Below are positions 5,737 through 47,468 of a stretch of DNA of 64,000 nt, one piece after another. Position 1 is the stretch's first letter. Every line of letters starts with the position of its first letter. The position numbers and the translations under genes were made by a program. This DNA comes from a virus (taxonomy: Duplodnaviria > Caudoviricetes), in IMG/VR virus record IMGVR_UViG_642918884_000001, positions 6,111-70,110 of that record. One strand, written 5' to 3'. A model generated the notes under the pieces. That model had not been told where the DNA came from. It searched no databases and saw nothing but the letters and a program-made list of their open reading frames with translations.

Positions 5737-6969
5737 ATGCCGAATATGTTGGCATATCAGGAATTCGCCGGAATGCCGATGATCGACGGTATTCCCGTCT
5801 TTCCGATCTTCGGTGGCACGCAGCCGGTCCAACAGGGCGGTTATGCGTCGTCCGCAGATCTCGTCACCCACACCGCCGATGGCGTGGATCTGAACGACCT
5901 CTGGGACATCGCGGCGCTGGCTCTCGAAATGTACGCCGAACAGCAGCAGACGTTGATCGACCTGCTCACCTTCCCGGTCGAAACGCCGGTCGAGGTCGTT
6001 CCGCAGATCGGCGAAATCAGCTTCGATGAGCTGACGGAATACGGCATTCCGACCACTGCGCAGCAGCAGGTGGAAATGTGGTCGATGGGTTACGACCTTC
6101 GCCACTACGGAAAGCGTCTCGGCTACACGTGGATGTTCCTCGCGGACGCCGATTCTCGCCAGATCGAAGCAATGCACAACGGCATGATGCTGGCCGACCG
6201 GCGACTCGTCTTCCGGAAGATCATGGAGGCGTTGTTCGACAACCGGATTCGCCGAACCAACATTCGCAACCAGCCGTACAACGTGTTCCCGCTGTACAAC
6301 GGTGTCGATGTCGGAATCGTGCCTCCGCCGTACAAGGGCAACACCTTCACCGCGACCCACAACCACTATCTGACGACCGGCAACACCACGCTCGATTCGT
6401 CGGACGTGGAGGATCTGTACACGCTGATCGCAGAGCACGGTTACGGTCTGGAAACCGGATCGACGTTCTACCTGCTCGCGAACAAGGCCGAAACCGACAA
6501 GATTCGGGGTTGGCGTCGGGGTGTCGTTTCTGCCAATGGCATCAACGCCACCTACGACTTCATTCCGGCGGCGAATCAGCCCGCCGTGATTCTGCCGAAC
6601 GCCGAAGGCTTGCTCGGTTCGCTGCCGCCTTCGACGTATCGCGGAATGCGCGTGATCGGCTCGTACGGTGACATTTACATCATCGAAGAGTCGTTCATTC
6701 CGCCCGGTTACATGCTCATGGTGGCATCGGGCGGCGCGGGCAACCTCGGCAACCCGGTCGGTTTCCGCCAGCACGCGAATCCGGCGATGCAGGGTCTTCG
6801 GATTCTGCCGGGTAACCAGCAGCGCTTCCCGCTGGTCGATTCGTTCTACGCGCATTCGTTCGGTACCGGCATCCGCCAGCGCGGCGGCGCGGCGATCATG
6901 CAGATCACCGACCAGCCGACGTACACGATTCCGAACGGGTACAAGAAGGGCACCGGCCTTCTGGCCTAG
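5737..6969 (+). CDS. Major capsid protein
   Basis: 410 aa, strong codon bias and position; DLVTHTADGVDLNDLW and FDELTEYGIP motifs; followed by a strong hairpin. Confidence 0.85.
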   Translation: MPNMLAYQEFAGMPMIDGIPVFPIFGGTQPVQQGGYASSADLVTHTADGVDLNDLWDIAALALEMYAEQQQTLIDLLTFPVETPVEVVPQIGEISFDELTEYGIPTTAQQQVEMWSMGYDLRHYGKRLGYTWMFLADADSRQIEAMHNGMMLADRRLVFRKIMEALFDNRIRRTNIRNQPYNVFPLYNGVDVGIVPPPYKGNTFTATHNHYLTTGNTTLDSSDVEDLYTLIAEHGYGLETGSTFYLLANKAETDKIRGWRRGVVSANGINATYDFIPAANQPAVILPNAEGLLGSLPPSTYRGMRVIGSYGDIYIIEESFIPPGYMLMVASGGAGNLGNPVGFRQHANPAMQGLRILPGNQQRFPLVDSFYAHSFGTGIRQRGGAAIMQITDQPTYTIPNGYKKGTGLLA

Positions 6970-6982
6970 TCTGATAAGCTGA

Positions 6983-7020
6983 CTGGTGATTCGGGCGATG
7001 CAAATCGCCCGAATCACCGG
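6983..7020 (+). terminator. Strong hairpin after the MCP gene (terminator or mRNA stabiliser)
   Basis: GGTGATTCGGGCGAT-GCAA-ATCGCCCGAATCACC: 15-bp perfect stem, GNRA loop, no U-tract. Confidence 0.7.
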
Positions 7021-28529: not shown

Positions 28530-29290
28530 TCGCGCATTATGCGTTCGCGAAAAGGTAGCGACGCGCCAGTAATCAGGGCTGCGCATAATGCGCGCTCGCG
28601 CAGGGCTGGCCGTTAAAACCTTAATGCAGTTGCGCGCGTCTTGTCGGATCTGCGCGCGGAAGAATCGCGCGCCGCGCGCGATTCCACGCGCGCGAATTGC
28701 GCACGCGTGCGCAGTGTAATCGCGCAATGCGCGATTCCACGCGCAATGCGCGCGAATCTAGGCGCGCTCCACCCCTTTCGCGCGCGTGTATGGACGCACG
28801 CGCGTAGCATGGATCGCGCGCGTTTCGCCCAGTTCCGCGCCCATCACGCGCGCGCATGTGGCTCGTTGCTACGTGCGTGCGTACATTCACGCACGCACGT
28901 AGCAACGATCACGCGCGGCTCGTCGCTTTCGCGCACGCTGCGGACGCACGCACGTAGCGACGAATCGCGCAATGCGCGAATTGCGCATGCGCGTCCAATT
29001 CCGCGCGTGCGGAATTGGACGCGCGCGTAGGTGTCGCAGGTACGCACAACACACCAGCGATACGGAATGCGCGTAATGCCTACGCGCGTGCCCAGAGTAT
29101 GCTCGCGCATATCATGCAGGCGTGCGCCCAGAGTATGCTCGCGCATTATGCGCGGCGGTGCGCGCAGAGTTCTCGCGCAGACCTGCATGTCTGCGCGCGC
29201 GATAATAACCCGCGCGCGGTAAAGCGGCAAACTCGATAAACCCGTGGTCAGAGCCGGTTTTTGGGGTTCTCGCGCGCCCGCGTCCGAGGC
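28530..29290. repeat. Non-coding low-complexity tract of alternating CG/CA/TG (GCGC, CGCG), with short direct repeats
   Basis: Dense CGCGCG/TGCGCG/ACGCGCG words; GCCCAGAGTATGCTCGCGCAT occurs twice (~29090-29110 and ~29126-29146); the ORFs here are R/A/C-biased artefacts. Confidence 0.8.
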
Positions 29291-29539
29291 CAAAAAAATT
29301 TTTTTCTCGCTTCTACCAGCACTTTTGGAAGAAATTTTCGGGATTTTGCCAAAGTTTGCTGGAAAGTGTGGTTAAACTGATGGCACAACTTCACACCGAC
29401 CAGCCAGACTCACCGGCTCCCAGGGAACGCACAACGGCCACGTGGCCAGCGGGAGGGATCGCCAGAGCGCGGAGGGTAGGCGCGAACGTTGGCACGCAAA
29501 GGCACACATGTACACGAAAGCGCAGGTCACACGTAACGC

Positions 29540-29568
29540 TTGACACGAAAGCGGGCGACGCTTAGGCT
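29540..29568 (+). promoter_or_regulatory. Strong SigA-type early promoter
   Basis: TTGACA (29540-45), 17-bp spacer, TAGGCT (29563-68); overlaps CTTAGGCTAGCCCA. Confidence 0.8.
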
Positions 29569-29860
29569 AGCCCACAGAACGACGCAACAAGTGAATCACG
29601 CTAATCACCCGTAGGGTGATTTGAGGCCAGACGACTGTCCTCGTCGGAGTGCTCACGCAACGAACAGAAACGTTGCTTGCAACGGCTCCCGCAAAAGGTC
29701 GGCATAATTCCATAGAGGTTGGTGTTAGCTCGGAGTTCCCTAGCGTGGGGAGTCGAGTCAGAGCCAGGGCATAATTCCCTACGGGAATTCTTTGTCGAAA
29801 ATTGGTCAAAAGTCCGTCCGAAGCCAAAACTTTAGGACTAGCTTTGCTAGTCGCTCGGAA

Positions 29861-29936
29861 GGACTGTGCCGCGACGGTGCGGCGTGATCGGGTATCAATC
29901 CCCGGCAGTCCACGACGACAGACAGAAGATCTGTCG
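29861..29936 (+). ncRNA. tRNA-like element E0 (divergent) plus downstream hairpin
   Basis: GGACTG/CAGTCC acceptor-like stem; TCGGG-TATCAATC-CCCGG arm; ACGA; CGACAGA/TCTGTCG hairpin. Confidence 0.6.
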
Positions 29937-29957
29937 CAAAAGGAACAGGATAAGACT

Positions 29958-30701
29958 ATGAACGCAATCACCTGGAGGCAGGAACGCTACATTCGTGACC
30001 TGCTCGAAAAGAAGGCGTGGAAATTCGATGCTCCGCAGTTTGTCACTGCGGTGCAAGCGCACGTTGATTCGAATCTCGGCAATCTGACCGGAGGTCGCGA
30101 CGGCACGGGTTCGGCGCTGATTGGCTACCTCAAGGGTCTGCCGGATACCGCCGAGATCTTGAAGTCGCATGCGGTTTCGGTTCAGACCGCCGATCACTTC
30201 GAACAGATCACCGGCGTTCGGCCCGAATCGGTGACGGACAATCGCGCGGAATCGTTCGACATCACCGGCAACGAGGATTTCAACCATTGGGTCAACCATG
30301 TTGACCCAAAGGCTCCGAGCAAGGCGGTTCGGACTCCGAGCGTGGCCGATGGTTGGGTCAAGGGTCGGCCCACGGTCGGCGAACGTCCCAAAGCGCCGAC
30401 CGCGCGACCCGGCCTGTACGTTCGCGACGGCGAAGTGTTCAAAGTGACGGAATCGAAGCGCAATCCCGGTCAGTTCGTGGCGAAGCTCATCGGAACGATG
30501 GAACGGGGACACCGTAAGGCGACGTTCGTCCGTGGCATGGTCTGGAAACTGACCGAAGATCAGCGCATGACGCCAGAACAGGCGAAAGCGTACGGCGACA
30601 AGTTCGGGCAATGCGTGAATTGCGGCAAGGCTCTGAACGATCCTGCCAGCGTAAAGCTGGGAATGGGTCCGGTTTGCCACAAGCGCTTGACCGGACACTG
30701 A
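29958..30701 (+). CDS. DUF6011-like Zn-finger protein
   Basis: C-terminal GQCVNCGKALNDPASVKLGMGPVC; ATG 29958 after AGGA. Confidence 0.8.
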   Translation: MNAITWRQERYIRDLLEKKAWKFDAPQFVTAVQAHVDSNLGNLTGGRDGTGSALIGYLKGLPDTAEILKSHAVSVQTADHFEQITGVRPESVTDNRAESFDITGNEDFNHWVNHVDPKAPSKAVRTPSVADGWVKGRPTVGERPKAPTARPGLYVRDGEVFKVTESKRNPGQFVAKLIGTMERGHRKATFVRGMVWKLTEDQRMTPEQAKAYGDKFGQCVNCGKALNDPASVKLGMGPVCHKRLTGH

Positions 30702-30730
30702 GAAATGCGCTAGCCTTGGGCTAGCCTAAG
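30687..30730 (+). promoter_or_regulatory. Putative SigA promoter plus GGCTAGCC palindrome
   Basis: TTGACC-18 bp-TAGCCT followed by TGGGCTAGCCTAAG (reverse complement of the 29561 site). Confidence 0.55.
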
Positions 30731-30733
30731 ACA

Positions 30734-30798
30734 GGGTGACTGGCAGAGATCGGGGTTCGACTCCCCGACACCCACGACGACAGACACCAGATCTGTCG
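30734..30798 (+). ncRNA. tRNA-like element E1 plus hairpin
   Basis: GGGTG-actggcagaga-TCGGGG-TTCGACT-CCCCGA-CACCC-ACGA, then CGACAGA/TCTGTCG. Confidence 0.8.
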
Positions 30799-30817
30799 CA
30801 GATCAAAGGACACGAAA

Positions 30818-31180
30818 ATGGGCAACGGTCGAATTCGCAACGTCTACGAGCCGAAGAATCTCCAATACTTGGAGGACGCCGAACATCGCGTTACTGACCA
30901 GTTCCGTGGAACTGGATTCCCGCTTTACGGCACCGTGACGTGGATTAATCGCGACGGAAATTCGCAGGCGGTCAAGCTGCTTTCCGTCACGAATTCGCTC
31001 GGCGAAATCAAGCTGGTCGAACTGACCGGAGACATCGCCCGCGTGCTCGGTCTCAAGATCGGCCACGGCGGCGTGATCGTGGACGGGTACGGTATGAGTC
31101 CGCTGACTCAGATTCAGCACATGCTGAATTACAAGATCGGCCTATCCGTCGCAGTACGGGAACTGTCCGAATCGATCTAG
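30818..31180 (+). CDS. Hypothetical early protein
   Basis: AAAGGA RBS; sits between E1 and E2. Confidence 0.8.
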   Translation: MGNGRIRNVYEPKNLQYLEDAEHRVTDQFRGTGFPLYGTVTWINRDGNSQAVKLLSVTNSLGEIKLVELTGDIARVLGLKIGHGGVIVDGYGMSPLTQIQHMLNYKIGLSVAVRELSESI

Positions 31181-31189
31181 ATTCGGGGA

Positions 31190-31254
31190 GCGGTGAACGG
31201 TTAAACCGGGTTCGATTCCCGGCACCGCACGACGACAGACACAAAGATCTGTCG
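31190..31254 (+). ncRNA. tRNA-like element E2 plus hairpin
   Basis: GCGGTG-aacggttaaa-CCGGG-TTCGATT-CCCGG-CACCGC-ACGA, then CGACAGA/TCTGTCG. Confidence 0.8.
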
Positions 31255-31272
31255 CAGATGAAAGGACTTGTC

Positions 31273-31479
31273 ATGGCAATGACAAAGCGCGATTTCGTGG
31301 CAATCGCCGAGATCATTCGCGAAGAGAAAACCCTTCGCGCTCCGGACCCGATGCGCGATGCTACCGCGCAGGAAATCGCCCGTGGCATCGCACGGCACGC
31401 AAAGCAGGTCAATCCCCGTTTCGACCGGGCGAAGTTTCTCACCGCGTGCGGTTTCGATTCCGATTCGGTTGGGTGGTGA
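31273..31479 (+). CDS. Hypothetical early protein
   Basis: GAAAGGA RBS; MTKRDFVAIAEII...NPRFDRAKFLTACG resembles a common small phage family. Confidence 0.8.
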   Translation: MAMTKRDFVAIAEIIREEKTLRAPDPMRDATAQEIARGIARHAKQVNPRFDRAKFLTACGFDSDSVGW

Positions 31480-31482
31480 ATC

Positions 31483-31752
31483 ATGGCTACGGTAACCGGA
31501 AATATGTATTGCTGCGATGACTGCGCAATGTCAATCGCCAACGGCGATACGTCGGGACTCGACTATCACGGCGACGATTACCGCGCGGCGTGGGAGGCTG
31601 GCGTGGCCGCAACGTCGGATAGTCTTCCGGAAGGGTATCCGGTAGTTTCTTGCCCAGAAGGATGCACGGGCGAAAGCAAGAACGAATTCAATTGCGACTT
31701 TTGCAGTCGTGATGTATATTCACACAAGTTCGTTCTCGTCTTCCTCAACTAG
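31483..31752 (+). CDS. Cys-rich hypothetical protein
   Basis: CCDDC...CPEGC...CDFC. Confidence 0.7.
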   Translation: MATVTGNMYCCDDCAMSIANGDTSGLDYHGDDYRAAWEAGVAATSDSLPEGYPVVSCPEGCTGESKNEFNCDFCSRDVYSHKFVLVFLN

Positions 31753-31759
31753 CACGGTA

Positions 31760-31823
31760 GGGTGAACGGTTTCACCGGGGTTCGATTCCCCGGCACCCAC
31801 GAGAATCGTCAAAAGAACGATTC
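31760..31823 (+). ncRNA. tRNA-like element E3 plus hairpin
   Basis: GGGTG-aacggtttca-CCGGGG-TTCGATT-CCCCGG-CACCC-ACGA, then GAATCGT/ACGATTC. Confidence 0.8.
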
Positions 31824-31843
31824 CAGACAGATCGGACAGAATC

Positions 31844-32164
31844 ATGGACACTGCACAAGAGGCACTGTTCCGCGCCATGCTTAACGGCGGATGGATGGCA
31901 GAATCGTCGGGCAACGTCGAAGCTCCCACGGGATACTTCGGACACATGACGAACACCGTTCACGAGCTGGCAGAGATTCGGGAAGCGTTCTCCGAAACCA
32001 TCGAAGCCTACGGCGATCCGTCCGACGACGATATCGTCGGGCATTGGATCGTGGTTCTCGATTCCAACGGAATCATCCGGATCGAACGGCAATCCACCCC
32101 ACTTCGGGAGTGGGATTCCTACATCAAGCTCGAAAAGGAATTCGCCAAGTGGGAGGAAAACTAA
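31844..32164 (+). CDS. Hypothetical acidic protein
   Basis: Clean ORF between E3 and E4; preceded by CGGACAGAATC. Confidence 0.8.
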   Translation: MDTAQEALFRAMLNGGWMAESSGNVEAPTGYFGHMTNTVHELAEIREAFSETIEAYGDPSDDDIVGHWIVVLDSNGIIRIERQSTPLREWDSYIKLEKEFAKWEEN

Positions 32165-32175
32165 CCCGCCAAGGC

Positions 32176-32240
32176 GCGCGACTGGCAGACTTCGGGGTTC
32201 GAGTCCCCGACGCGCACGATCAGAACCAAAAGGGTTCTGG
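32176..32240 (+). ncRNA. tRNA-like element E4 plus hairpin
   Basis: GCGCG-actggcagact-TCGGGG-TTCGAGT-CCCCGA-CGCGC-ACGA, then CAGAACC/GGTTCTG. Confidence 0.8.
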
Positions 32241-32258
32241 CATACGGAAAGGTACAAA

Positions 32259-32519
32259 ATGAAGACCATCGTTTTCGGTTTTCTGGCAGCAATCGCAGCT
32301 TCGGTTTCGCTGGCTCTGGCATCGCCCGCGCTGGCGGGTCCGCAGGACGACGTTTTGTGTTCGTCCAACATGGCCTATCGGACCGGCCACAAGGCCGACT
32401 GCAAGGACATCGCCGTGAATTCGCATGGTGGTGGTGGTGGCTGGGGAGCGAAGGACGACGACGGCGACGGAGTGTCCAACGGCGACGATCCGGCACCGCA
32501 CGATCCGACGCAGCCGTAG
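32259..32519 (+). CDS. Small secreted protein with a DxDxDG Ca-binding-like repeat
   Basis: Signal peptide ending ASPALA; C-terminal DDDGDGVSNGDDPAP. Confidence 0.8.
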   Translation: MKTIVFGFLAAIAASVSLALASPALAGPQDDVLCSSNMAYRTGHKADCKDIAVNSHGGGGGWGAKDDDGDGVSNGDDPAPHDPTQP

Positions 32520-32526
32520 CACGGGA

Positions 32527-32591
32527 GCGCGACTGGCAGAGTTTCGGGTTCGACTCCCGAACGCGCACGACGACAATCCGAAGAATTGTCG
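32527..32591 (+). ncRNA. tRNA-like element E5 plus hairpin
   Basis: GCGCG-actggcagagt-TTCGGG-TTCGACT-CCCGAA-CGCGC-ACGA, then CGACAAT/ATTGTCG. Confidence 0.8.
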
Positions 32592-32613
32592 CAATCAGGA
32601 AACGGACAGAATC

Positions 32614-32949
32614 ATGGAAGATCTGGAACTGTACGGCGAAGGCAAGGCAGTGCTCGGCGCTGGTACCGATCAGCTCGTGCTTGAAGTCTGGTACGACGGT
32701 CATTACGTGATCGACAACGATTCAGGCGAATCGGCAGAGACCTACGGCGTTCGGTTGATCACCGACACCGAAGACTACGAAAGCGCCGATATCTACGATC
32801 TGCAAGAGCGGACGCCGAACGTGGCCGAAGCGCGCCGACAGGTCGCCGCGATGCTCTGGCTTGCCAATCGCGAGGATTGGCCGGAATGGGTCACCGCGTG
32901 GGCGGCGCGGAACCGTCCAGAACTGGAACGTCTCGTTACGGCGGCGTAG
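32614..32949 (+). CDS. Hypothetical protein
   Basis: ATG 32614 preceded by GGAAACGGACAGAATC. Confidence 0.8.
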   Translation: MEDLELYGEGKAVLGAGTDQLVLEVWYDGHYVIDNDSGESAETYGVRLITDTEDYESADIYDLQERTPNVAEARRQVAAMLWLANREDWPEWVTAWAARNRPELERLVTAA

Positions 32950-33089
32950 TGCTCTCCGACGACGACGTTGATTCATTCGGATTCGACTGGATCGACCGAG
33001 TGAATCAGGCTCTCGACAGACCCAAATCGCCGATTCGAGAGCGCATGTCACAAGAGCGTGCTAGGGTCAAGCAAGGGTCAAGCCGTTAA
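32949..33089 (+). CDS. Small hypothetical protein (46 aa)
   Basis: TAGTG coupling; (V)LSDDDVDSFGFDWIDRVNQALDRPK... Confidence 0.5.
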   Translation: MLSDDDVDSFGFDWIDRVNQALDRPKSPIRERMSQERARVKQGSSR

Positions 33090-33096
33090 CACGGCA

Positions 33097-33159
33097 CCGT
33101 GGATGGTCGAAATCGGGGTTCGACTCCCCGACACGGGCGACGAATCTCGCCGAGATTCG
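33097..33159 (+). ncRNA. tRNA-like element E6 plus hairpin
   Basis: CCGTG-gatggtcgaaa-TCGGGG-TTCGACT-CCCCGA-CACGG-GCGA, then CGAATCTC/GAGATTCG. Confidence 0.8.
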
Positions 33160-33180
33160 CAGAAAAGAAGGAAAACGGAC

Positions 33181-33516
33181 ATGTCGCAGGACAAGAGCAA
33201 GGAAACCGGACTCGTCTCGATGCACAGCGAGTGGGTCGGCAAGAGCTACGTTCGCACCGTGGCGCGCCGCGTGGGCAAGTCGGCAACCCTCATGGTGGAC
33301 GTGACCGAGTACGCCGACCGTCCGTCGAAGAAGCGCGCCAGCGCCGCAGCGCGCCACGCGGCGCGTGAGGCCAGCGCAACGCCGGTCAAGGCTCCCGCTG
33401 GTTCGGTGATCTTCGAGCACGAGAGCGTCAAGCAGACGAACCGTCTGGACGAGGACGGCAACCTCGTGCCGTTGCGGACGCGGATGCGGACCACGACGTT
33501 CGCATTCGGAATCTGA
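33181..33516 (+). CDS. Hypothetical protein
   Basis: AAGGAAAACGGAC-ATG; strong codon bias. Confidence 0.8.
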   Translation: MSQDKSKETGLVSMHSEWVGKSYVRTVARRVGKSATLMVDVTEYADRPSKKRASAAARHAAREASATPVKAPAGSVIFEHESVKQTNRLDEDGNLVPLRTRMRTTTFAFGI

Positions 33517-33546
33517 CGGAATCCGACCAGAAAAGGAAACGGAACA

Positions 33547-33909
33547 ATGACGTACACAGTGCAGGTCACGCCCGAAGTGCTCGGGCAGGGTCACCGGATC
33601 TGGATCTCGGAACCGCCGAACAACAATCCGGAGGAACCGCCGATCAACACACAGGTCTACCTCAAGAACGACGATCCGTTGCTCTTGGCGTTCGGCCAGC
33701 TCGTGATGGCGATCCGGGATCGTGGGCGGATCGAAGGGGAAATCCGCTCGAAGGACGCGGAGATCACCGCGTACTCGGCGCAGATTTCGGAGATTCGTTC
33801 GGAGTTCCGCGTTTACCGGGAACAGAACGAACAACAGAAATCCGTCGAAAAGGTCAAGGCGGCTGCCGAACAGGCTCGGGCTGCCGCCGATAAGGCGAGG
33901 AACAAGTGA
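33547..33909 (+). CDS. Hypothetical coiled-coil protein
   Basis: AAGGAAACGGAACA-ATG. Confidence 0.8.
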   Translation: MTYTVQVTPEVLGQGHRIWISEPPNNNPEEPPINTQVYLKNDDPLLLAFGQLVMAIRDRGRIEGEIRSKDAEITAYSAQISEIRSEFRVYREQNEQQKSVEKVKAAAEQARAAADKARNK

Positions 33910-33910
33910 C

Positions 33911-34285
33911 ATGGACGTTGTGAAAGAAGCTCTGCTTCACTACCGTTCCATGTGGGCGATGTGGCTGGAACTGAAACACACCACAGACGCCGAACGGGAA
34001 TTGGCGCGGCTGAAAATCGCGCTGATCGACGCCGAACTGAATCCGTCCGGACCGACGTTGCGCCCAACCGGCAATGTGTATCCGGCGTTCAATCCACCGG
34101 AGGGCGATTACCACGCGTTCGATCCAACGACGGATCTGATTCGATGCGCCAATCAGGGTTGCGGCGAAACGATCCAACAGAACGAAAACGGTACCGGTTG
34201 GGTTCACGTCGAAACGGGGAACGCGTATTGCGACGTTCCGCCGAGAAACCCGGCGTACGGCAAACGAGCGAATCCGCTCGCGTAG
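33911..34285 (+). CDS. Hypothetical protein with a Cys/His motif
   Basis: ATG 1 nt after the previous stop; CANQGCGETI...WVH...C. Confidence 0.7.
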   Translation: MDVVKEALLHYRSMWAMWLELKHTTDAERELARLKIALIDAELNPSGPTLRPTGNVYPAFNPPEGDYHAFDPTTDLIRCANQGCGETIQQNENGTGWVHVETGNAYCDVPPRNPAYGKRANPLA

Positions 34286-34289
34286 GGTG

Positions 34290-34342
34290 GCCGCTGACGG
34301 GTTCGACTCCCGTCAGCGGCGCGAGGGTTCTCAGAGAACTCT
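34290..34342 (+). ncRNA. tRNA-like element E7 (pure 12-bp minihelix) plus hairpin
   Basis: GCCGCTGACGGG-TTCGACT-CCCGTCAGCGGC-GCGA: perfect 12-bp stem closed by a T-loop. Confidence 0.8.
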
Positions 34343-34426
34343 TATTTGGGCTAGCCGAAAGTCGTGCTAGTCTGAATTCGGGAGGAAACGAGAAGGGTTC
34401 TCGTCCCGATTTGAAAGGAAACGGAC

Positions 34427-35638
34427 ATGAGCTATCACGATCAGTATTACCTCAACGCCGGTCACATTCTCGTGGGCGGTGTGCAGGGTCTCAAGGACCG
34501 GCTCACCGGCGAATCGCTCGAAGGCGGCTGGCGTCGGCCCGCGTGGTGGTACAACCCGCGTCTCGAAGACGTGCTCAACCCCACGCATTTCCCCGGCTAC
34601 CTGCCGATCTCGCTGATCAAGGAAAAGCTTTTCGGCTGGACCGCGCTGGAATCGGCGAAGATCGTTGCCCACGTCGAGATCGACGGCAAGATGGTCGAAA
34701 TCAACTGCGGAAACTACAAGGCGATCATTCGCGGTGACCGGGTGTGGGAGGACGTTCCGCACGACGACGACGGCAATCCGGTCGGAAACATCGGAAATCC
34801 GGAATCCGTTCTCTCGATCATGAGCAACGAATACGGCACTCACCAGCCGCAGGAATTGTTCATCAACATGACGAGCGAACTCTTGCAGGGTTCGGACAAC
34901 ATCGGCGCGACCGGCGCTGGCCTGCTCAAGTGGGGTCGGGTGTGCTACATGGAGGTCTCGATTCCGCAGACCATGCACAACGACCGCGCCGGTTTCGACT
35001 ACCGTCCGAATCTGTTGATCTACACCAGTTTCGACGGTTCGCTGAAAACCACGCTGGCCCGTACGATCACGGCGACGGTTTGCGACAACACGCTGCAAAT
35101 CGCCGCAAGCGAGGCCAAGCGCGCCGGAACCGCGCTGACCATTGGTCACACCCGGTTGTCGTCTGACCGGATGCCCGAAGCTCGGCAGGTTCTGGGAATC
35201 ATCGAACAGGAATCCGACGATTTCAACACGCTTCTGGACGAATGGGCGGCAACGCCGGTTTCGACCAAGCAGTTCGAAGCGTGGTTGGACGAGGTTTTGC
35301 CGGTTCCCGAGGTCAAGGTGATCGACGGCAAGGCGAAGACGAATTCGCAGACCATCGTTCTGAACAAGCGCGAGGCAATCGGAGATCTGTACTACACCGA
35401 TGAGCGCGCGGCGACGTGGGTCGGTACCAAGCTCGGCGTTCGCCAGGCGTGGAACACCGCACATCACCACAAGTTCCGTTCGGGCAACGCCAAGCAGTTC
35501 GACGGAAACAAGACGCTGGCCCGCGTCGAGTCGAACATGATGCGTTCGCTCAAGATGGACAAGAACGGTGAAACCGAGATTGCACGCTCGGATGCGTTCG
35601 CGATGGAAAAGTTGGACCTGGTACTGTCCAATTCATAA
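34427..35638 (+). CDS. DUF932/DUF945-family phage/plasmid protein
   Basis: LLIYTSFDGSLKTTLARTITATVCDNTL...IGHT matches the family's xxSxDGS...VCxNTL...H pattern. Confidence 0.8.
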   Translation: MSYHDQYYLNAGHILVGGVQGLKDRLTGESLEGGWRRPAWWYNPRLEDVLNPTHFPGYLPISLIKEKLFGWTALESAKIVAHVEIDGKMVEINCGNYKAIIRGDRVWEDVPHDDDGNPVGNIGNPESVLSIMSNEYGTHQPQELFINMTSELLQGSDNIGATGAGLLKWGRVCYMEVSIPQTMHNDRAGFDYRPNLLIYTSFDGSLKTTLARTITATVCDNTLQIAASEAKRAGTALTIGHTRLSSDRMPEARQVLGIIEQESDDFNTLLDEWAATPVSTKQFEAWLDEVLPVPEVKVIDGKAKTNSQTIVLNKREAIGDLYYTDERAATWVGTKLGVRQAWNTAHHHKFRSGNAKQFDGNKTLARVESNMMRSLKMDKNGETEIARSDAFAMEKLDLVLSNS

Positions 35639-35648
35639 ACAGACCGGA

Positions 35649-35710
35649 GCGTGACCAGCAGACGCCGGGGTGCGAGTCCCCGGCACGCACGACGATTCCA
35701 GACGGAATCG
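35649..35710 (+). ncRNA. tRNA-like element E8 plus hairpin
   Basis: GCGTG-accagcagacg-CCGGGG-TGCGAGT-CCCCGG-CACGC-ACGA, then CGATTCC/GGAATCG. Confidence 0.75.
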
Positions 35711-35739
35711 ACCACAAATCAAATAGAAACGGACACAGA

Positions 35740-35934
35740 ATGAGCGGAGACACGCAAAACAAAACGTGGCAATACGTGAAGGCTAGCGATATCGTCACGG
35801 GCGACGTTACGCGCCGAGGCGAAATCGCGGCAACCATCGTGAGCCTGTCCCCTGGTACTCGGACGCTGGCATTCGTGGGCGGCGCGCCGAAACTGACGAT
35901 CTCGGACCATGCGCCGATTGAGGTTCTGCGGTGA
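35740..35934 (+). CDS. Small hypothetical protein
   Basis: GAAACGGACACAGA-ATG; VKASDIVTGD motif. Confidence 0.7.
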   Translation: MSGDTQNKTWQYVKASDIVTGDVTRRGEIAATIVSLSPGTRTLAFVGGAPKLTISDHAPIEVLR

Positions 35935-36107
35935 TCGCGCGAATTGTCGCGTTCGCCGCGCTGGTATTGCTCGCGATGATGTGCGGTTTCGGCGCAGGAT
36001 CGCAGCTTCTCACCGGATCGGGCAGCGGCGCGGTTTTCATGGCGCTACTCGCCGGGGTTTTCGGTTGGGTTGCGTACAAAATCGCGTTCGACCGAGCAGA
36101 GTCATGA
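35931..36107 (+). CDS. Small membrane protein (2 TM)
   Basis: GTGA coupling; hand-translated MIARIVAFAALVLLAMMCGFGAG...VFMALLAGVFGWVAYKIAFDRAES. Confidence 0.65.
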   Translation: MIARIVAFAALVLLAMMCGFGAGSQLLTGSGSGAVFMALLAGVFGWVAYKIAFDRAES

Positions 36108-47312: not shown

Positions 47313-47395
47313 TCGCCACCAAAACTGAAAATGGGACCGGCGGAAGCCTAATGAAAAAGGGCATTTTAGCCTGCCTGCTTATCGACCAGCCCAGG

Positions 47396-47444
47396 GATGG
47401 GTAGCAGAGCGACTGGACTAGTGGGTTCAACTCCCACACCCATT
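47396..47444 (+). ncRNA. tRNA-like element E9 (7-bp acceptor stem plus 5-bp T-arm, no anticodon arm)
   Basis: GATGGGT-agcagagcgactggacta-GTGGG-TTCAACT-CCCAC-ACCCATT. Confidence 0.65.
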
Positions 47445-47468
47445 TTCTCCAAAAGCTAAGTCGCACAA

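Follow-up and report, generated by a model that had tools for sequence, protein, structure and literature searches.

In animal mitochondria, where tRNAs punctuate the transcripts, and in bacterial and phage operons that contain tRNA genes, cistrons are set apart by structures that RNase P and RNase Z recognize. In the early genes of T7, repeated intergenic RNase III sites give rise to monocistronic mRNAs, with what is left of the structure protecting their ends. Here we describe repeated tRNA-like elements in a phage DNA stretch of 64,000 nt (the window). The marks of mitochondrial and operon punctuation are functional tRNAs, whereas the phage elements have no anticodon arm and could be only signals or mimics. 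The T7 sites, too, are repeated intergenic RNA structures of an early phage operon cut by a host nuclease, as we propose for the phage element; however, they are long double-stranded hairpins with internal loops, while the phage elements are tRNA mimics with 11-bp stems and a hairpin of ~7 bp.

In plant mitochondria, t-elements adjoin protein-coding genes, fold like tRNAs and share a conserved GGTTCRANYCC T-arm. According to Forner et al. (2007, PMC1920247), their mapped ends coincide with the termini, 5′ and 3′, of mRNAs; RNase Z and/or RNase P were named as the enzymes responsible, and elements that had been released bore C/A residues not encoded in the DNA. A tRNA-like fold and a T-arm near genes are common to both systems, and the t-element mechanism is the one proposed here. 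The t-elements are non-canonical cloverleaves of ~74 nt, heterogeneous and few per genome, whereas the phage element is a uniform 40-41 nt, occurs 7-15 times per genome, has a fixed downstream hairpin and has neither a D-stem nor an anticodon arm; beyond the universal T-arm the two show no sequence homology. The ends of t-elements were mapped, while those of the phage element are predicted from sequence.

Another tRNA-like module, that of YrlA in M. smegmatis, was cleaved at its RNase P site and CCA-tailed in vivo; therefore, the machinery of this bacterium, a host of these phages, accepts tRNA mimics (Chen et al. 2014, PMC4201824). YrlA combines acceptor, D, T and partial anticodon/variable arms with a Ro60-binding stem and adjoins rsr, a set of features that we count as missing from the phage element. 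A domain scan of 39 distinct window proteins showed no TROVE domain.

The mascRNA/MEN-beta family (RF01684) resembles the phage element in having a tRNA-like fold within a longer transcript, with RNase P and RNase Z defining the flanking RNA ends, but its members are nuclear lncRNAs of vertebrates and fold as a full cloverleaf-like structure; two window copies match it weakly, with 20.6 and 20.0 bits against a gathering score of 42.5. The tRNA-like domain of tmRNA (RF00023) shares with the phage element an acceptor stem, a D-loop-like single strand with GG, a T-arm and the absence of an anticodon arm. One copy, E4, matched the tmRNA model below threshold (21 bits, E 1.8e-5), only at both ends of the model and with 328 model positions skipped. 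The mRNA-like reading frame, the pseudoknots and the long helix 2 of tmRNA are all missing from the phage element; its acceptor stem has 5 bp rather than 7 and lacks G3:U70, CCA is not encoded, and the element is embedded in mRNA in many repeats per genome.

Elements of the Window Phage

The window phage is a mycobacteriophage, ~78% identical to Konstantine. The gene array at 29.9-35.7 kb lies 3′ of the lysin gene and 5′ of the genes for helicase, DNA polymerase III alpha and primase; its position suggests that these genes are early. The initial annotation had placed nine copies of the same module in most intergenic gaps of the array. We found the described module at all nine positions, always on the gene (mRNA) strand; the elements occupy all 9 array gaps of at least 90 nt and none of the 3 gaps of at most 30 nt. 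Seven copies are near-uniform and canonical; E1 and E8 proved to be structural variants (Table 1). ARAGORN returned no tRNA genes in the 64-kb window, and the tRNA model RF00005 had no match there at E ≤ 10.

In a canonical copy the acceptor stem has 5 bp, the linker of 10-11 nt includes a D-loop-like GG, and the 6-bp T-stem is closed by a 7-nt loop that follows the tRNA consensus TTCGANT; E3 departs from the stem lengths and E9 from the loop sequence. The 3′ acceptor strand is followed by an unpaired A or G, CGA, a hairpin of 7-8 bp, the RBS and the ATG, with 43-50 nt from the unpaired base to the ATG. The RBS lies within ~15-27 nt past the hairpin in the seven canonical copies and in E1. RNAfold reproduced the described folds, with z from -2.2 to -4.8.

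The T-loop motif had 16 matches, compared to 4.94 ± 1.98 expected, and none of 100 shuffles reached this number; eight of the nine exact matches were in the array, on the + strand. A covariance model was seeded with six window copies, the seventh canonical copy, E3, being held out. The best unrelated match of the model in 64 kb scored 21.5 bits, compared to 40.8 for E3.

In E1, a 22-nt linker folds as an extra hairpin, and the T-loop is degenerate (TATCAAT). Its three-way fold has -35.1 kcal/mol (z -2.9), and the Konstantine orthologue keeps all three helices via compensatory changes. Neither covariance model, R1 or R2, detected E1; a repeat search put it in register with the other copies at 69-75% identity. 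The models detected E8 only partially (R1 14.7 bits, R2 17.3 bits). The E8 fold has -36.6 kcal/mol (z -4.8), an orthologue is retained in Konstantine, and the next ATG is ~100 nt away. We also noticed, by eye, a motif GGCTAGCC located 8 nt 5′ of E2 and again just 3′ of E8, at 34349; it may be a promoter marker or operator-like.

Table 1. Elements and associated hairpins of the window (window coordinates).
Feature	Position	Strand	Description	ATG	Support
E1	29861..29912	+	variant; 6-bp acceptor stem, D-arm-like GG-loop hairpin, degenerate T-arm, unpaired A		
E1 hairpin	29916..29936	+	7 bp, 3 nt past unpaired A	29958	fold
E2	30734..30774	+	canonical; 5+6 bp, 11-nt linker, TTCGACT loop, unpaired A		R1 74.3 bits; fold
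E2 hairpin	30778..30798	+	after CGA	30818	fold
E3	31190..31229	+	canonical; 6+5 bp split		held out of seed alignment; 40.8 bits, E 1.6e-6
E3 hairpin	31233..31254	+		31273	
E4	31760..31799	+	canonical; 10-nt linker AACGGTTTCA		R1 58.4 bits
E4 hairpin	31803..31823	+		31844	fold
E5	32176..32216	+	canonical		R1 69.8 bits
E5 hairpin	32221..32239	+	4-nt spacer	32259	
E6	32527..32567	+	canonical		R1 70.2 bits
E6 hairpin	32571..32591	+		32614	
E7	33097..33137	+	canonical; unpaired G		R1 66.0 bits
E7 hairpin	33141..33159	+	8 bp	33181	
E8	34290..34321	+	variant; linker-less minihelix, continuous 12-bp helix, TTCGACT loop, unpaired G		
E8 second hairpin	34323..34343	+	9 bp, then TTATTT; terminator-like by eye		fold
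E9	35649..35689	+	canonical; linker ACCAGCAGACG, loop TGCGAGT		R1 67.7 bits; fold z -3.1
E9 hairpin	35693..35710	+		35740	fold

Conservation in Other Phages

A covariance search of phage genomes, which the initial annotation had recommended, recovered the same element elsewhere. The window-trained model found 7 copies in Konstantine, 14 in Send513, 7 in Streptomyces phage Lika and 15 in an uncultured phage of 57 kb, and it also matched low-GC phage contigs. One provirus carried four tandem copies with no clear genes between them. Among loci that all shared the T-arm pattern, the window-only model matched 26 of 80 viral loci and 4 of 80 bacterial ones. Judged by these matches, the element is a widespread phage RNA family, a scope that had been underestimated when only one genome was considered. 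The element is absent from Rfam, and our literature search found no description of it.

The variation of stem sequences with retained pairing, claimed from the window copies, was borne out in 73 copies from 20 sources: 99.6% of the pair cells could pair, and 9 of the 11 pairs showed compensatory changes. The covariation score was 0.830 compared to 0.178 in shuffles (none of 500 reached 0.830), and slid partners gave at most 0.143. The loop-proximal G-C pairs, equivalent to G52-C62 and G53-C61, were invariant. Since the stems diverge while pairing is kept, selection appears to act on the fold and not on the sequence; by this pattern the anatomy of the tRNA top half is under selection.

The geometry and flank counts come from copies selected and aligned by the model, a selection that favors uniformity. 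With this bias, the stack had 11 bp in 66 of 73 copies and 12 bp in 5 (2 were unparsed), and most linkers had 11 nt (54 copies) or 10 nt (13 copies). Of the 71 non-redundant copies used for flank statistics, 65 had A and 4 had G as the unpaired base, 69 had C right after it (position 74), none had C at position 75, and only 2 had U, which would pair with A73, at N-1. For comparison, 32 of 33 distinct tRNA genes of a Streptomyces genome had C74, 7 had C75 and 3 had the full CCA. Thus, as far as aligned sequences can tell, the 3′ flank of the elements (C74, no C75) matches CCA-less tRNA genes of an actinobacterial host. CCA is a known block to RNase Z.

Perfect hairpins (≥5 bp) started exactly 3 nt past the unpaired base in 36 of the 71 copies, and 53 copies had one starting at 1-4 nt; in shuffled tails a hairpin appeared at 3 nt in 1.7% and at any position in 22.5%. 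Thirteen copies had no hairpin within 14 nt, and some low-GC copies had none. On the other side of the element, among 64 copies with a clear upstream frame, the stop codon was 6-10 nt 5′ of the element in 41 and at 3-5 nt in none. The third acceptor pair was G:U in 1 of 70 distinct copies, so the G3:U70 alanine identity pair is not a feature of the family.

Proposed Processing Signals and Alternative Roles

The structure, conservation, placement and host-like flanks of the elements are observed features. We consider it an even call that they mark cleavage signals for host tRNA-end nucleases, analogous to the t-elements; the nuclease would then probably be RNase Z and possibly RNase P. The initial annotation had proposed such tRNA punctuation, and each prediction of this reading that sequence could address came out favorably: elbow features are conserved, elements lie on the mRNA strand, an unpaired base follows the stem, U is avoided at N-1, C74 is kept without C75, the hairpin recurs at 3 nt, and matches are enriched in phages over bacteria. 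From these features we infer transcription of the array as one RNA, the cuts, the enzyme and a stabilizing effect.

In the proposed mechanism, the first non-structural genes would be transcribed together, and the elements would act as signals in this polycistronic RNA. Each element would fold as a tRNA top half, i.e., an 11-bp acceptor/T-arm stack with the T-loop and with the GG linker replacing the D-loop, a shape that the host tRNA end-maturation machinery would recognize. The most likely cut would be made by RNase Z, immediately after the unpaired A73 (or C74). At 6-10 nt past its stop codon, the upstream cistron would then end in a tRNA-like 3′ structure that is compact and resists exonucleases and to which CCA may be added. 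The downstream cistron would start with 2-3 free nucleotides and a hairpin, an arrangement known to shield a 5′-monophosphate end. RNase P may also cut at the 5′ edge, releasing a mini-tRNA of ~41-45 nt, though an acceptor stem of 5 bp, the lack of C75 and an N-1 base other than U speak less for RNase P than for RNase Z. The long phage transcript would thus be cut into stable single-gene messages.

Several observations speak against cleavage. The stack has 11 bp compared to 12 bp in tRNA, with an acceptor stem of only 5 bp, and a hairpin just 3 nt away might obstruct the cut rather than come after it. The four sequencing runs compared with the region consist of contigs and are probably DNA. 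Co-transcription of the array genes is assumed; with possible promoters (GGCTAGCC) near E2 and E8, some elements may stand at the very beginning of a transcript and would not have to detach a preceding gene. The low-GC copies without a hairpin and the provirus with gene-less tandem copies do not fit well either.

Excision by both RNase P and RNase Z followed by CCA addition could also make the mini-tRNA itself the main product, a decoy or sponge acting in trans, which we regard as unlikely. Every gap would yield an anticodon-less mimic of 41-45 nt, 7-15 per transcript, aimed at host factors that recognize the acceptor end or elbow of tRNA, for example, defence toxins acting on tRNA 3′ ends or, for host shut-off, tRNA-maturation enzymes. 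Toxins and nucleases acting on tRNA acceptor ends have been reported (PMC7450476, PMC12851939). The high copy number (7, 14 and 15 per genome), the resemblance of the provirus tandem to a tRNA cluster, the Ocr-like anti-restriction gene in the gene block shared with the Lika array, and the joint retention of C74 and unpaired A73, as CCA completion needs, would all suit a decoy. Yet a decoy needs no fixed spacing to stop codons, hairpins or RBS, and the spacing observed is tight on both sides; the short acceptor stem and the non-U N-1 disfavor the RNase P cut required for release; the sequence evidence names no candidate target, and many toxins cut at the anticodon loop, which the mimic does not have.

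It is likewise rather improbable that the element stays uncut and works in cis, insulating cistrons, blocking exonucleases or binding a host component that binds tRNA (ribosome, SmpB, or a T-loop-modifying enzyme acting as chaperone), with boosted or coupled translation of the downstream gene. The stop-codon spacing implies that a terminating ribosome would abut the folded element, the RBS lies within ~15-27 nt past the hairpin, and the linker and T-arm resemble the tmRNA tRNA-like domain at the model ends. This reading leaves unexplained the pre-tRNA-like 3′ flank and the strict 3-nt spacer; the G3:U70 identity pair is missing, and to our knowledge no translational enhancer of bacteria is tRNA-like.

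Very unlikely, in our estimate, are DNA-level linkers, where recombination between elements would reshuffle cassettes of element, hairpin, RBS and ORF, in one phage genome or across several, and the RNA fold would be a relic of a tRNA gene. Homology between the window and Konstantine does break at element modules. The gene at 32259-32519 (DUF7327), 81-85% identical to genes of another mycobacteriophage group, e.g., Acadian, is together with one element an insertion relative to Konstantine, and the flanking E5 and E6 both match a single Konstantine copy. Wastewater contigs have joints that link the end of the E2 module with the beginning of E3, and also joints across E9; this evidence is weak, the joints possibly being repeat-assembly artefacts. 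Recombination, however, favors identity, while the stems diverge freely with compensatory changes; the strand, spacing and flank rules have no DNA-level rationale, and cassette exchange is better viewed as a consequence of repeated elements.

Terminators or attenuators, i.e., GC-rich intergenic hairpins setting the relative dosage of the array genes, are extremely improbable: each gap has two stable hairpins, but such a function requires no tRNA T-loop, GG linker, unpaired A-C or exact 11-bp stack, and a terminator scan of the region gave 8 sites compared to 8.7 expected, with no element listed on the + strand and the second hairpin of E8 not in its list. The only T-run after an element is the one at E8, and there the promoter-like motif follows it.

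Copies of the element in the window and their fold

The initial annotation had placed nine like copies of a tRNA-like module in one gene array of the window, each with an acceptor-like stem, a linker and a T-arm, no anticodon arm, and a coupled hairpin usually followed by an RBS and a start codon. On re-reading the sequence we found the module at all nine starts. The likeness held for seven near-uniform copies (E2–E7 and E9), while E1 and E8 were structural variants.

Positions in the window of the tRNA-like elements (E1–E9) and of other features discussed in the text
Feature	Position	Description
Repeat-rich stretch	28530–29250	~700 nt without a convincing ORF, directly upstream of the array
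Long palindrome	~28868–28905	within the repeat-rich stretch
A7T7 run	~29292–29305	past the repeat-rich stretch
GGCTAGCC site	29565	296 nt before E1
E1	29861	variant; 22-nt linker forming an extra hairpin with a GG-containing loop; degenerate T-loop
GGCTAGCC site	30719	8 nt before E2
E2	30734	near-uniform copy
E3	31190	near-uniform copy
E4	31760	near-uniform copy
E5	32176	near-uniform copy
DUF7327 gene	32259–32519	86 aa; Pfam DUF7327 (E 1.9e-44)
E6	32527	near-uniform copy
E7	33097	near-uniform copy
E8	34290	variant; linker absent; one continuous 12-bp helix with a TTCGACT cap
GGCTAGCC site	34349	just after E8
E9	35649	near-uniform copy
GGCTAGCC site	37826	before a later gene
GGCTAGCC site	42823	before a later gene
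Rejected tenth copy	47394–47445	exact T-loop motif GGGTTCAACTCCC; possible 6-bp acceptor pairing; 18-nt linker
GGCTAGCC site	54061	before a later gene

The near-uniform copies had a 5-bp acceptor-like stem, a 10–11-nt linker and a 6-bp T-stem, with E3 split 6+5 rather than 5+6. Their 3' acceptor strand was followed by one unpaired A (G in E7), then by CGA, a 7–8-bp hairpin and the RBS, the ATG being situated 43–50 nt past the unpaired base. The 7-nt T-loop read TTCGANT in seven of the nine window copies, TGCGAGT in E9 and TATCAAT in E1. RNAfold reproduced the described structures of the uniform and the variant copies. All nine array gaps of at least 90 nt were occupied by an element, compared to none of the three gaps of 30 nt or less.

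The T-loop motif occurred 16 times in the window versus 4.94 ± 1.98 expected (none of 100 shuffles reached 16), and eight of the nine exact matches fell inside the array on the + strand. The covariance model R1, built from six window copies, scored its training copies at 58–74 bits and recovered the held-out E3 at 40.8 bits, while the best unrelated window match on either strand had 21.5 bits. Given the T-loop excess and the recovery of the held-out copy, chance does not explain the elements. Searched against the window, R1 matched the T-arm alone of E8 (14.7 bits) and did not detect E1. The orthologues of both in the related phage Konstantine keep the same folds, with compensatory changes in the acceptor stem and the extra hairpin of E1; therefore, we consider E1 and E8 real copies.

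A candidate tenth copy was rejected, with a fold z of -0.1, an R1 match confined to a 13-nt T-loop fragment (8.4 bits) and no match at E<=1 to R2, a later model partly trained on viral loci. It is probably a chance occurrence or a decayed copy.

We assessed covariation in 73 copies from 20 sources. In their R2-based alignment, which as a model-fitted one favours structure, 99.6% of the 767 pair cells formed standard pairs compared to 65.1% with shuffled partners. Two-sided changes were seen in nine of the 11 pairs (248 cells versus 70.7 expected). The covariation score was 0.830 compared to 0.178 for shuffles (0 of 500 reached it), and it was at most 0.143 when partners were slid by 1–3 columns. 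The two loop-proximal pairs were G-C in all 70 distinct copies. A set of 48 copies gave the same picture, and conservation of pairing was visible by eye in the raw sequences as well.

The geometry was similarly strict. The stack was 11 bp long in 66 of the 73 copies and 12 bp in five (two were unparsed), and the acceptor and T-stem were split 5+6 bp in 62. The linker had 11 nt in 54 copies and 10 nt in 13; its purine-rich, D-loop-like core followed NNYGGYNNNNN in nearly all copies, with AG in two. Together with the canonical T-loop, such a linker suggests that the tRNA elbow is reproduced. We also considered a pseudoknot between the 3' CGA and the UCG of the T-loop and rejected it: the two sites are at opposite ends of the 11-bp stack, and copies with the TGCGAGT loop still carry CGA.

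Flanking sequences and likeness to known RNAs

The most telling evidence for a reading in which the elements would be processed like tRNAs came from the flanks of 71 non-redundant copies. The base after the acceptor stem (position 73 in tRNA numbering) was A in 65 copies and G in four, the register being slipped by one in the remaining two. Position 74 was C in 69 of the 71, and position 75 was never C (G in 54, T in 14 and A in three, with the two shifted rows counted); the triplet was CGA in 48 of the 71. At N-1, directly 5' of the stem, only two copies had a T, which would bury A73 by pairing with it.

A perfect hairpin of at least 5 bp started exactly 3 nt past the unpaired base in 36 of the 71 copies and within 1–4 nt in 53, compared to shuffled tails of which 1.7% had a hairpin at 3 nt and 22.5% had any hairpin. 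On the upstream side, 64 copies were preceded by at least 40 open codons ending no more than 45 nt before the element. The stop codon of these frames ended 6–10 nt before the element in 41 cases, 3–5 nt in none and 1–2 nt in four.

For comparison with host genes we used a complete Streptomyces genome, with 33 distinct tRNA genes from the best 30 loci. C74 was present in 32 of the 33, C75 in seven and the full CCA in three. The commonest trailers of these genes were CTG and CTT, and several elements of the Streptomyces phage Lika likewise had such trailers (CTG, CTC). Since the pattern of C74 and a base other than C at 75 matches the Streptomyces genes, the element copies the 3' flank of host CCA-less tRNA genes. 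The 3' ends of tRNAs from such genes need an endonuclease and then the CCA-adding enzyme, and CCA is an anti-determinant for RNase Z.

ARAGORN called no tRNA and no tmRNA in the 64 kb. Rfam 15 gave no match at gathering thresholds over the whole window, and the tRNA model RF00005 had none even at E<=10 in 29500–36000. The only matches of a permissive Rfam search on the + strand were to the ends of the tmRNA model (E4) and to mascRNA (E5 and E3). The element shares with canonical tRNA the G53-C61 closing pair and the 7-nt loop of the T54-T55-C56-R57-A58 type. However, it folds into an acceptor stem, a linker and a T-arm rather than a cloverleaf with an anticodon arm, and its stack is mostly 5+6 (11 bp) instead of a 7-bp acceptor plus a 5-bp T-stem (12 bp).

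The tmRNA match (RF00023) had 21 bits against a gathering threshold of 47, and 328 internal model positions were absent from E4. Whereas tmRNA has a tag-peptide reading frame and pseudoknots, the element has neither; the alanine identity pair G3:U70 of tmRNA had a G:U counterpart at the third acceptor pair in one of 70 distinct copies, and the 3' CCA end of tmRNA contrasts with the lack of C at position 75. The mascRNA-menRNA matches (RF01684) had 20.6 and 20.0 bits (E 1.4 and 2.1) against a threshold of 42.5. Both tmRNA and mascRNA are mimics of the top half of tRNA, and the match of the element is one of resemblance, not membership.

By analogy, the closest known system is that of the plant mitochondrial t-elements. 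These are tRNA-like folds with the same T-arm motif that border mRNAs; their mapped ends coincide with those of mRNAs, and once released they bear C and A residues that are not encoded (PMC1920247). The phage elements likewise have a tRNA-like fold and a conserved T-arm, and directly flank coding regions on the mRNA strand. For t-elements the ends were mapped and cleavage is attributed to RNase P and/or RNase Z, whereas for the phage elements we infer cleavage.

The Y RNA YrlA has a Ro60-binding stem, while the element, at ~41 nt, has no further stem. Pfam scans of 39 distinct window proteins, a subset of the window ORFs, showed no TROVE domain (rsr, the neighbour gene of YrlA). According to PMC4201824, M. 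smegmatis cleaves and CCA-tails the tRNA-like module of YrlA in vivo, and RNase P cleavage of an M. smegmatis tRNA mimic is ascribed to its 7-bp acceptor stem.

Distribution among phages and bacteria

A covariance-model search of phage genomes, proposed in the initial annotation, found the same element in many other phages. R1 detected seven copies in Konstantine. A blastn search with E2 matched 43 phage records: Konstantine-like phages, a second group of mycobacteriophages, of ~71 kb (Send513, Papyrus, Rope and others), and Streptomyces phages of ~50 kb (Lika, Sujidade, Godpower, Caliburn, phiScoe phages and Endor1). Nothing was annotated under the match in any of the 42 annotated records; the 43rd carries no annotation. 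Whole-record searches gave 14 copies in Send513 and seven in Lika. The Lika copies occupied a stretch of small genes at the right end, an Ocr-like anti-restriction gene among them, that extends in the direction of the DNA polymerase.

When IMG/VR was scanned for a T-arm with RCGA following at the expected spacing, at least 80 loci were obtained, and R1, trained only on the window, matched 26 of the 80 listed. For example, a complete phage of 56,959 bp, with ~70% G+C and direct terminal repeats, had 15 matches, situated at the genome end and all on the same strand; two of the 15 represent one copy in the terminal repeat. Further contigs had seven, four, four and three copies, and low-GC contig groups had one or two each. 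With the same pattern, a scan of one genome per prokaryotic species also gave at least 80 loci, of which R1 matched four and R2 three of the 80 listed. The contrast is large, though it compares the first 80 loci listed per scan rather than random samples, and because R2 was partly trained on viral loci only the R1 figures are unbiased.

The bacterial pattern matches were mostly chance ones in coding DNA. The best case was a Glycomyces niveus contig with two elements (6287–6697) directly downstream of an FtsK/SpoIIIE-like gene (PHROG E 2e-28), which suggests an integrative conjugative element or a prophage rather than the core chromosome.

Two other arrangements were observed. In an IMG/VR provirus (6609–7002, - strand) four elements were in tandem at intervals of ~115 nt, with GC-rich GGCATGGC-type repeats and no clear genes between them, a layout like that of a tRNA cluster. 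Prevotella and Clostridia MAG contigs (~1990–2072 in the first) shared a near-identical RNA-like sequence, GGGCGGCAGGC...GGGGTTCGA(C/T)TCCCCGCGCCCCACGA, in which the 5' strand pairs with the T-arm and the acceptor 3' strand across a long insert; a tRNA and tmRNA search of these loci with ARAGORN gave no call.

Full-text literature searches gave no description of the elements, although the supplementary motif tables of PMC10690425 may include the motif. In that paper, Fremin et al. 2023 report ~10,000 candidate viral RNA structures, tRNA-like ones included (PMC10690425); PMC5311408 and PMC10732093 were not relevant to the elements. The elements are unannotated in all 42 annotated public phage records examined and absent from Rfam. 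What is known is the principle of tRNA-like processing signals; what appears to be new is a uniform anticodon-less carrier of ~41 nt with a coupled hairpin. As judged from the matches, this carrier is repeated 7–15 times in the apparent first operons of actinobacteriophages and also occurs in low-GC phage contigs that are unrelated.

Putative processing of the array transcript and genome setting

The reading we favour, with about even confidence, is that the elements are tRNA-like cleavage signals in array transcripts; cleavage is wholly what we infer from sequence. The array would be transcribed into long RNAs in which each element folds as the top half of a tRNA, and the host 3'-processing endonuclease RNase Z would cut after A73 or C74. 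The upstream message would then end in a tight tRNA-like fold, as near to the stop codon as a terminating ribosome permits; the 6-nt lower limit agrees with the length of mRNA covered by a ribosome beyond the A site. The downstream message would start with 2–3 free nucleotides and a hairpin, an arrangement that protects a 5' end from 5'-end-dependent decay. RNase P might cut at the 5' edge in addition, though with its 5-bp acceptor stem, no C75 and only rarely a U at N-1 the element would be a poorer RNase P substrate. This reading is complicated by the 13 of the 71 copies with no nearby hairpin and by the provirus with four tandem copies.

A wider version, in which phages of several bacterial phyla carry a class of anticodon-less mini-tRNAs that are cut in cis and also engage the tRNA machinery, we regard as doubtful. 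In cis, one RNase Z cut per element would leave each early message with a CCA-tailed tRNA mimic as its 3' end, a few nucleotides past the stop codon. In trans, or as mRNA tails, the mimics would engage tRNA-binding machinery, the candidates being the terminating ribosome and defence toxins directed against the acceptor end of tRNA. If true, the early operon would process itself and also serve against host defence or in the control of translation.

A release of mini-tRNAs as decoys or sponges would agree with the number of copies, with the anti-defence setting of the Lika copies and with the tandem array of the provirus; we consider this explanation unlikely, and the tight cis spacing does not fit it. 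An uncut element acting in cis on translation or stability would account for the distance from the stop codon and for the resemblance to the tmRNA domain; it is an improbable alternative, leaving the pre-tRNA-like 3' flank unexplained. We think it very unlikely that the modules are DNA-level recombination linkers. Homology between the window phage and Konstantine does break at modules, and the DUF7327 gene with one module is an insertion, both flanking copies matching a single Konstantine copy. Still, the stems diverge while pairing holds, which points to selection on the fold, and cassette exchange therefore looks like a by-product. Least credible are transcription terminators, for which perhaps the second hairpin of E8 speaks (by eye it is followed by TTATTT, with the next gene starting ~100 nt on), as the terminator scan listed no + strand element and its 8 sites compare to 8.7 expected.

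If the cleavage-signal reading is true, bacteriophages would have their own tRNA punctuation, carried not by real tRNAs but by a purpose-built 41-nt tRNA mimic. The principle of tRNA punctuation is known from mitochondria and a few nuclear lncRNAs; we know of no description for phage operons. The regular unannotated gaps of ~90 nt in these phage groups would be explained, phage annotation would gain a new RNA family, and a compact 'cistron separator' processed by the host would become available for synthetic operons in mycobacteria and Streptomyces. The strict rules (11-bp stack, A73-C74-not-C, a 3-nt hairpin spacer and a stop 6–10 nt upstream) make the hypothesis directly testable. Whether or not mini-tRNAs are abundantly released bears on current work on tRNA-targeting phage defence. 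From the comparison with Konstantine, exchange of gene cassettes between phages also has its breakpoints at the repeated modules.

The DUF7327 gene is absent from the syntenic Konstantine array, and its DNA is 81–85% identical to genes close to the right end in another mycobacteriophage group (Acadian, Baee, Rich and others), where it is on the opposite strand. The gene has the look of a cassette passed between phage groups, the window copy being flanked by two tRNA-like elements.

The region was carried by nine sequencing runs, the best four being wastewater 'RNA-Seq cDNA' libraries, represented by contigs and probably DNA. In these contigs, which are of related strains, a joint at 30800/31189 led from where the E2 module ends to where E3 begins, leaving out the gene at 30818–31180, and a joint at 35637/35684 skipped 46 nt, most of E9. 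Such joints may be natural losses of a cassette or an element, or assembly artefacts at repeats.

The window covers 64 kb of a 70,110-bp virus record. Its nearest public relatives were the Mycobacterium phages Konstantine, Oaker, Damien and their kin (~78% identity over ~40% of an 8-kb query), which we take to be 'Cluster H'. With the DUF932 protein, Konstantine and one IMG/VR fragment were the only relatives retrieved. All window genes were on the + strand. To the left of the array were a tape-measure-sized ORF and, at 24.5 kb, a lysin (peptidase M15 plus a peptidoglycan-binding domain); to the right were an SNF2 helicase (38 kb), a PD-(D/E)XK nuclease, DNA polymerase III alpha (48.6 kb) and a primase-polymerase (60 kb). 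Given this gene order, the array (29.9–35.7 kb) is the head of the non-structural arm, and it is from genome position that we would call it 'early'. A phage-encoded tRNA-processing enzyme was absent among the 29 Pfam-scanned proteins outside the array, a set without small ORFs.

The 8-bp palindrome GGCTAGCC occurred six times in the window versus 0.33 expected (0 of 100 shuffles), every time in the right arm and in most cases a short distance before a gene. Its extended form was T(A/G)GGCTAGCC, and similar TTGGGCTAGCC motifs were present in Konstantine gaps (~2522, 4262 and 7107). The palindrome is a promoter or operator candidate; as a promoter, it would place some elements at the very start of transcripts, which complicates the cleavage-signal reading.

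The repeat-rich stretch was dense in CGCG-rich short inverted and direct repeats (TCGCGCATTATGCG-like units) and may serve as a replication origin or in regulation.
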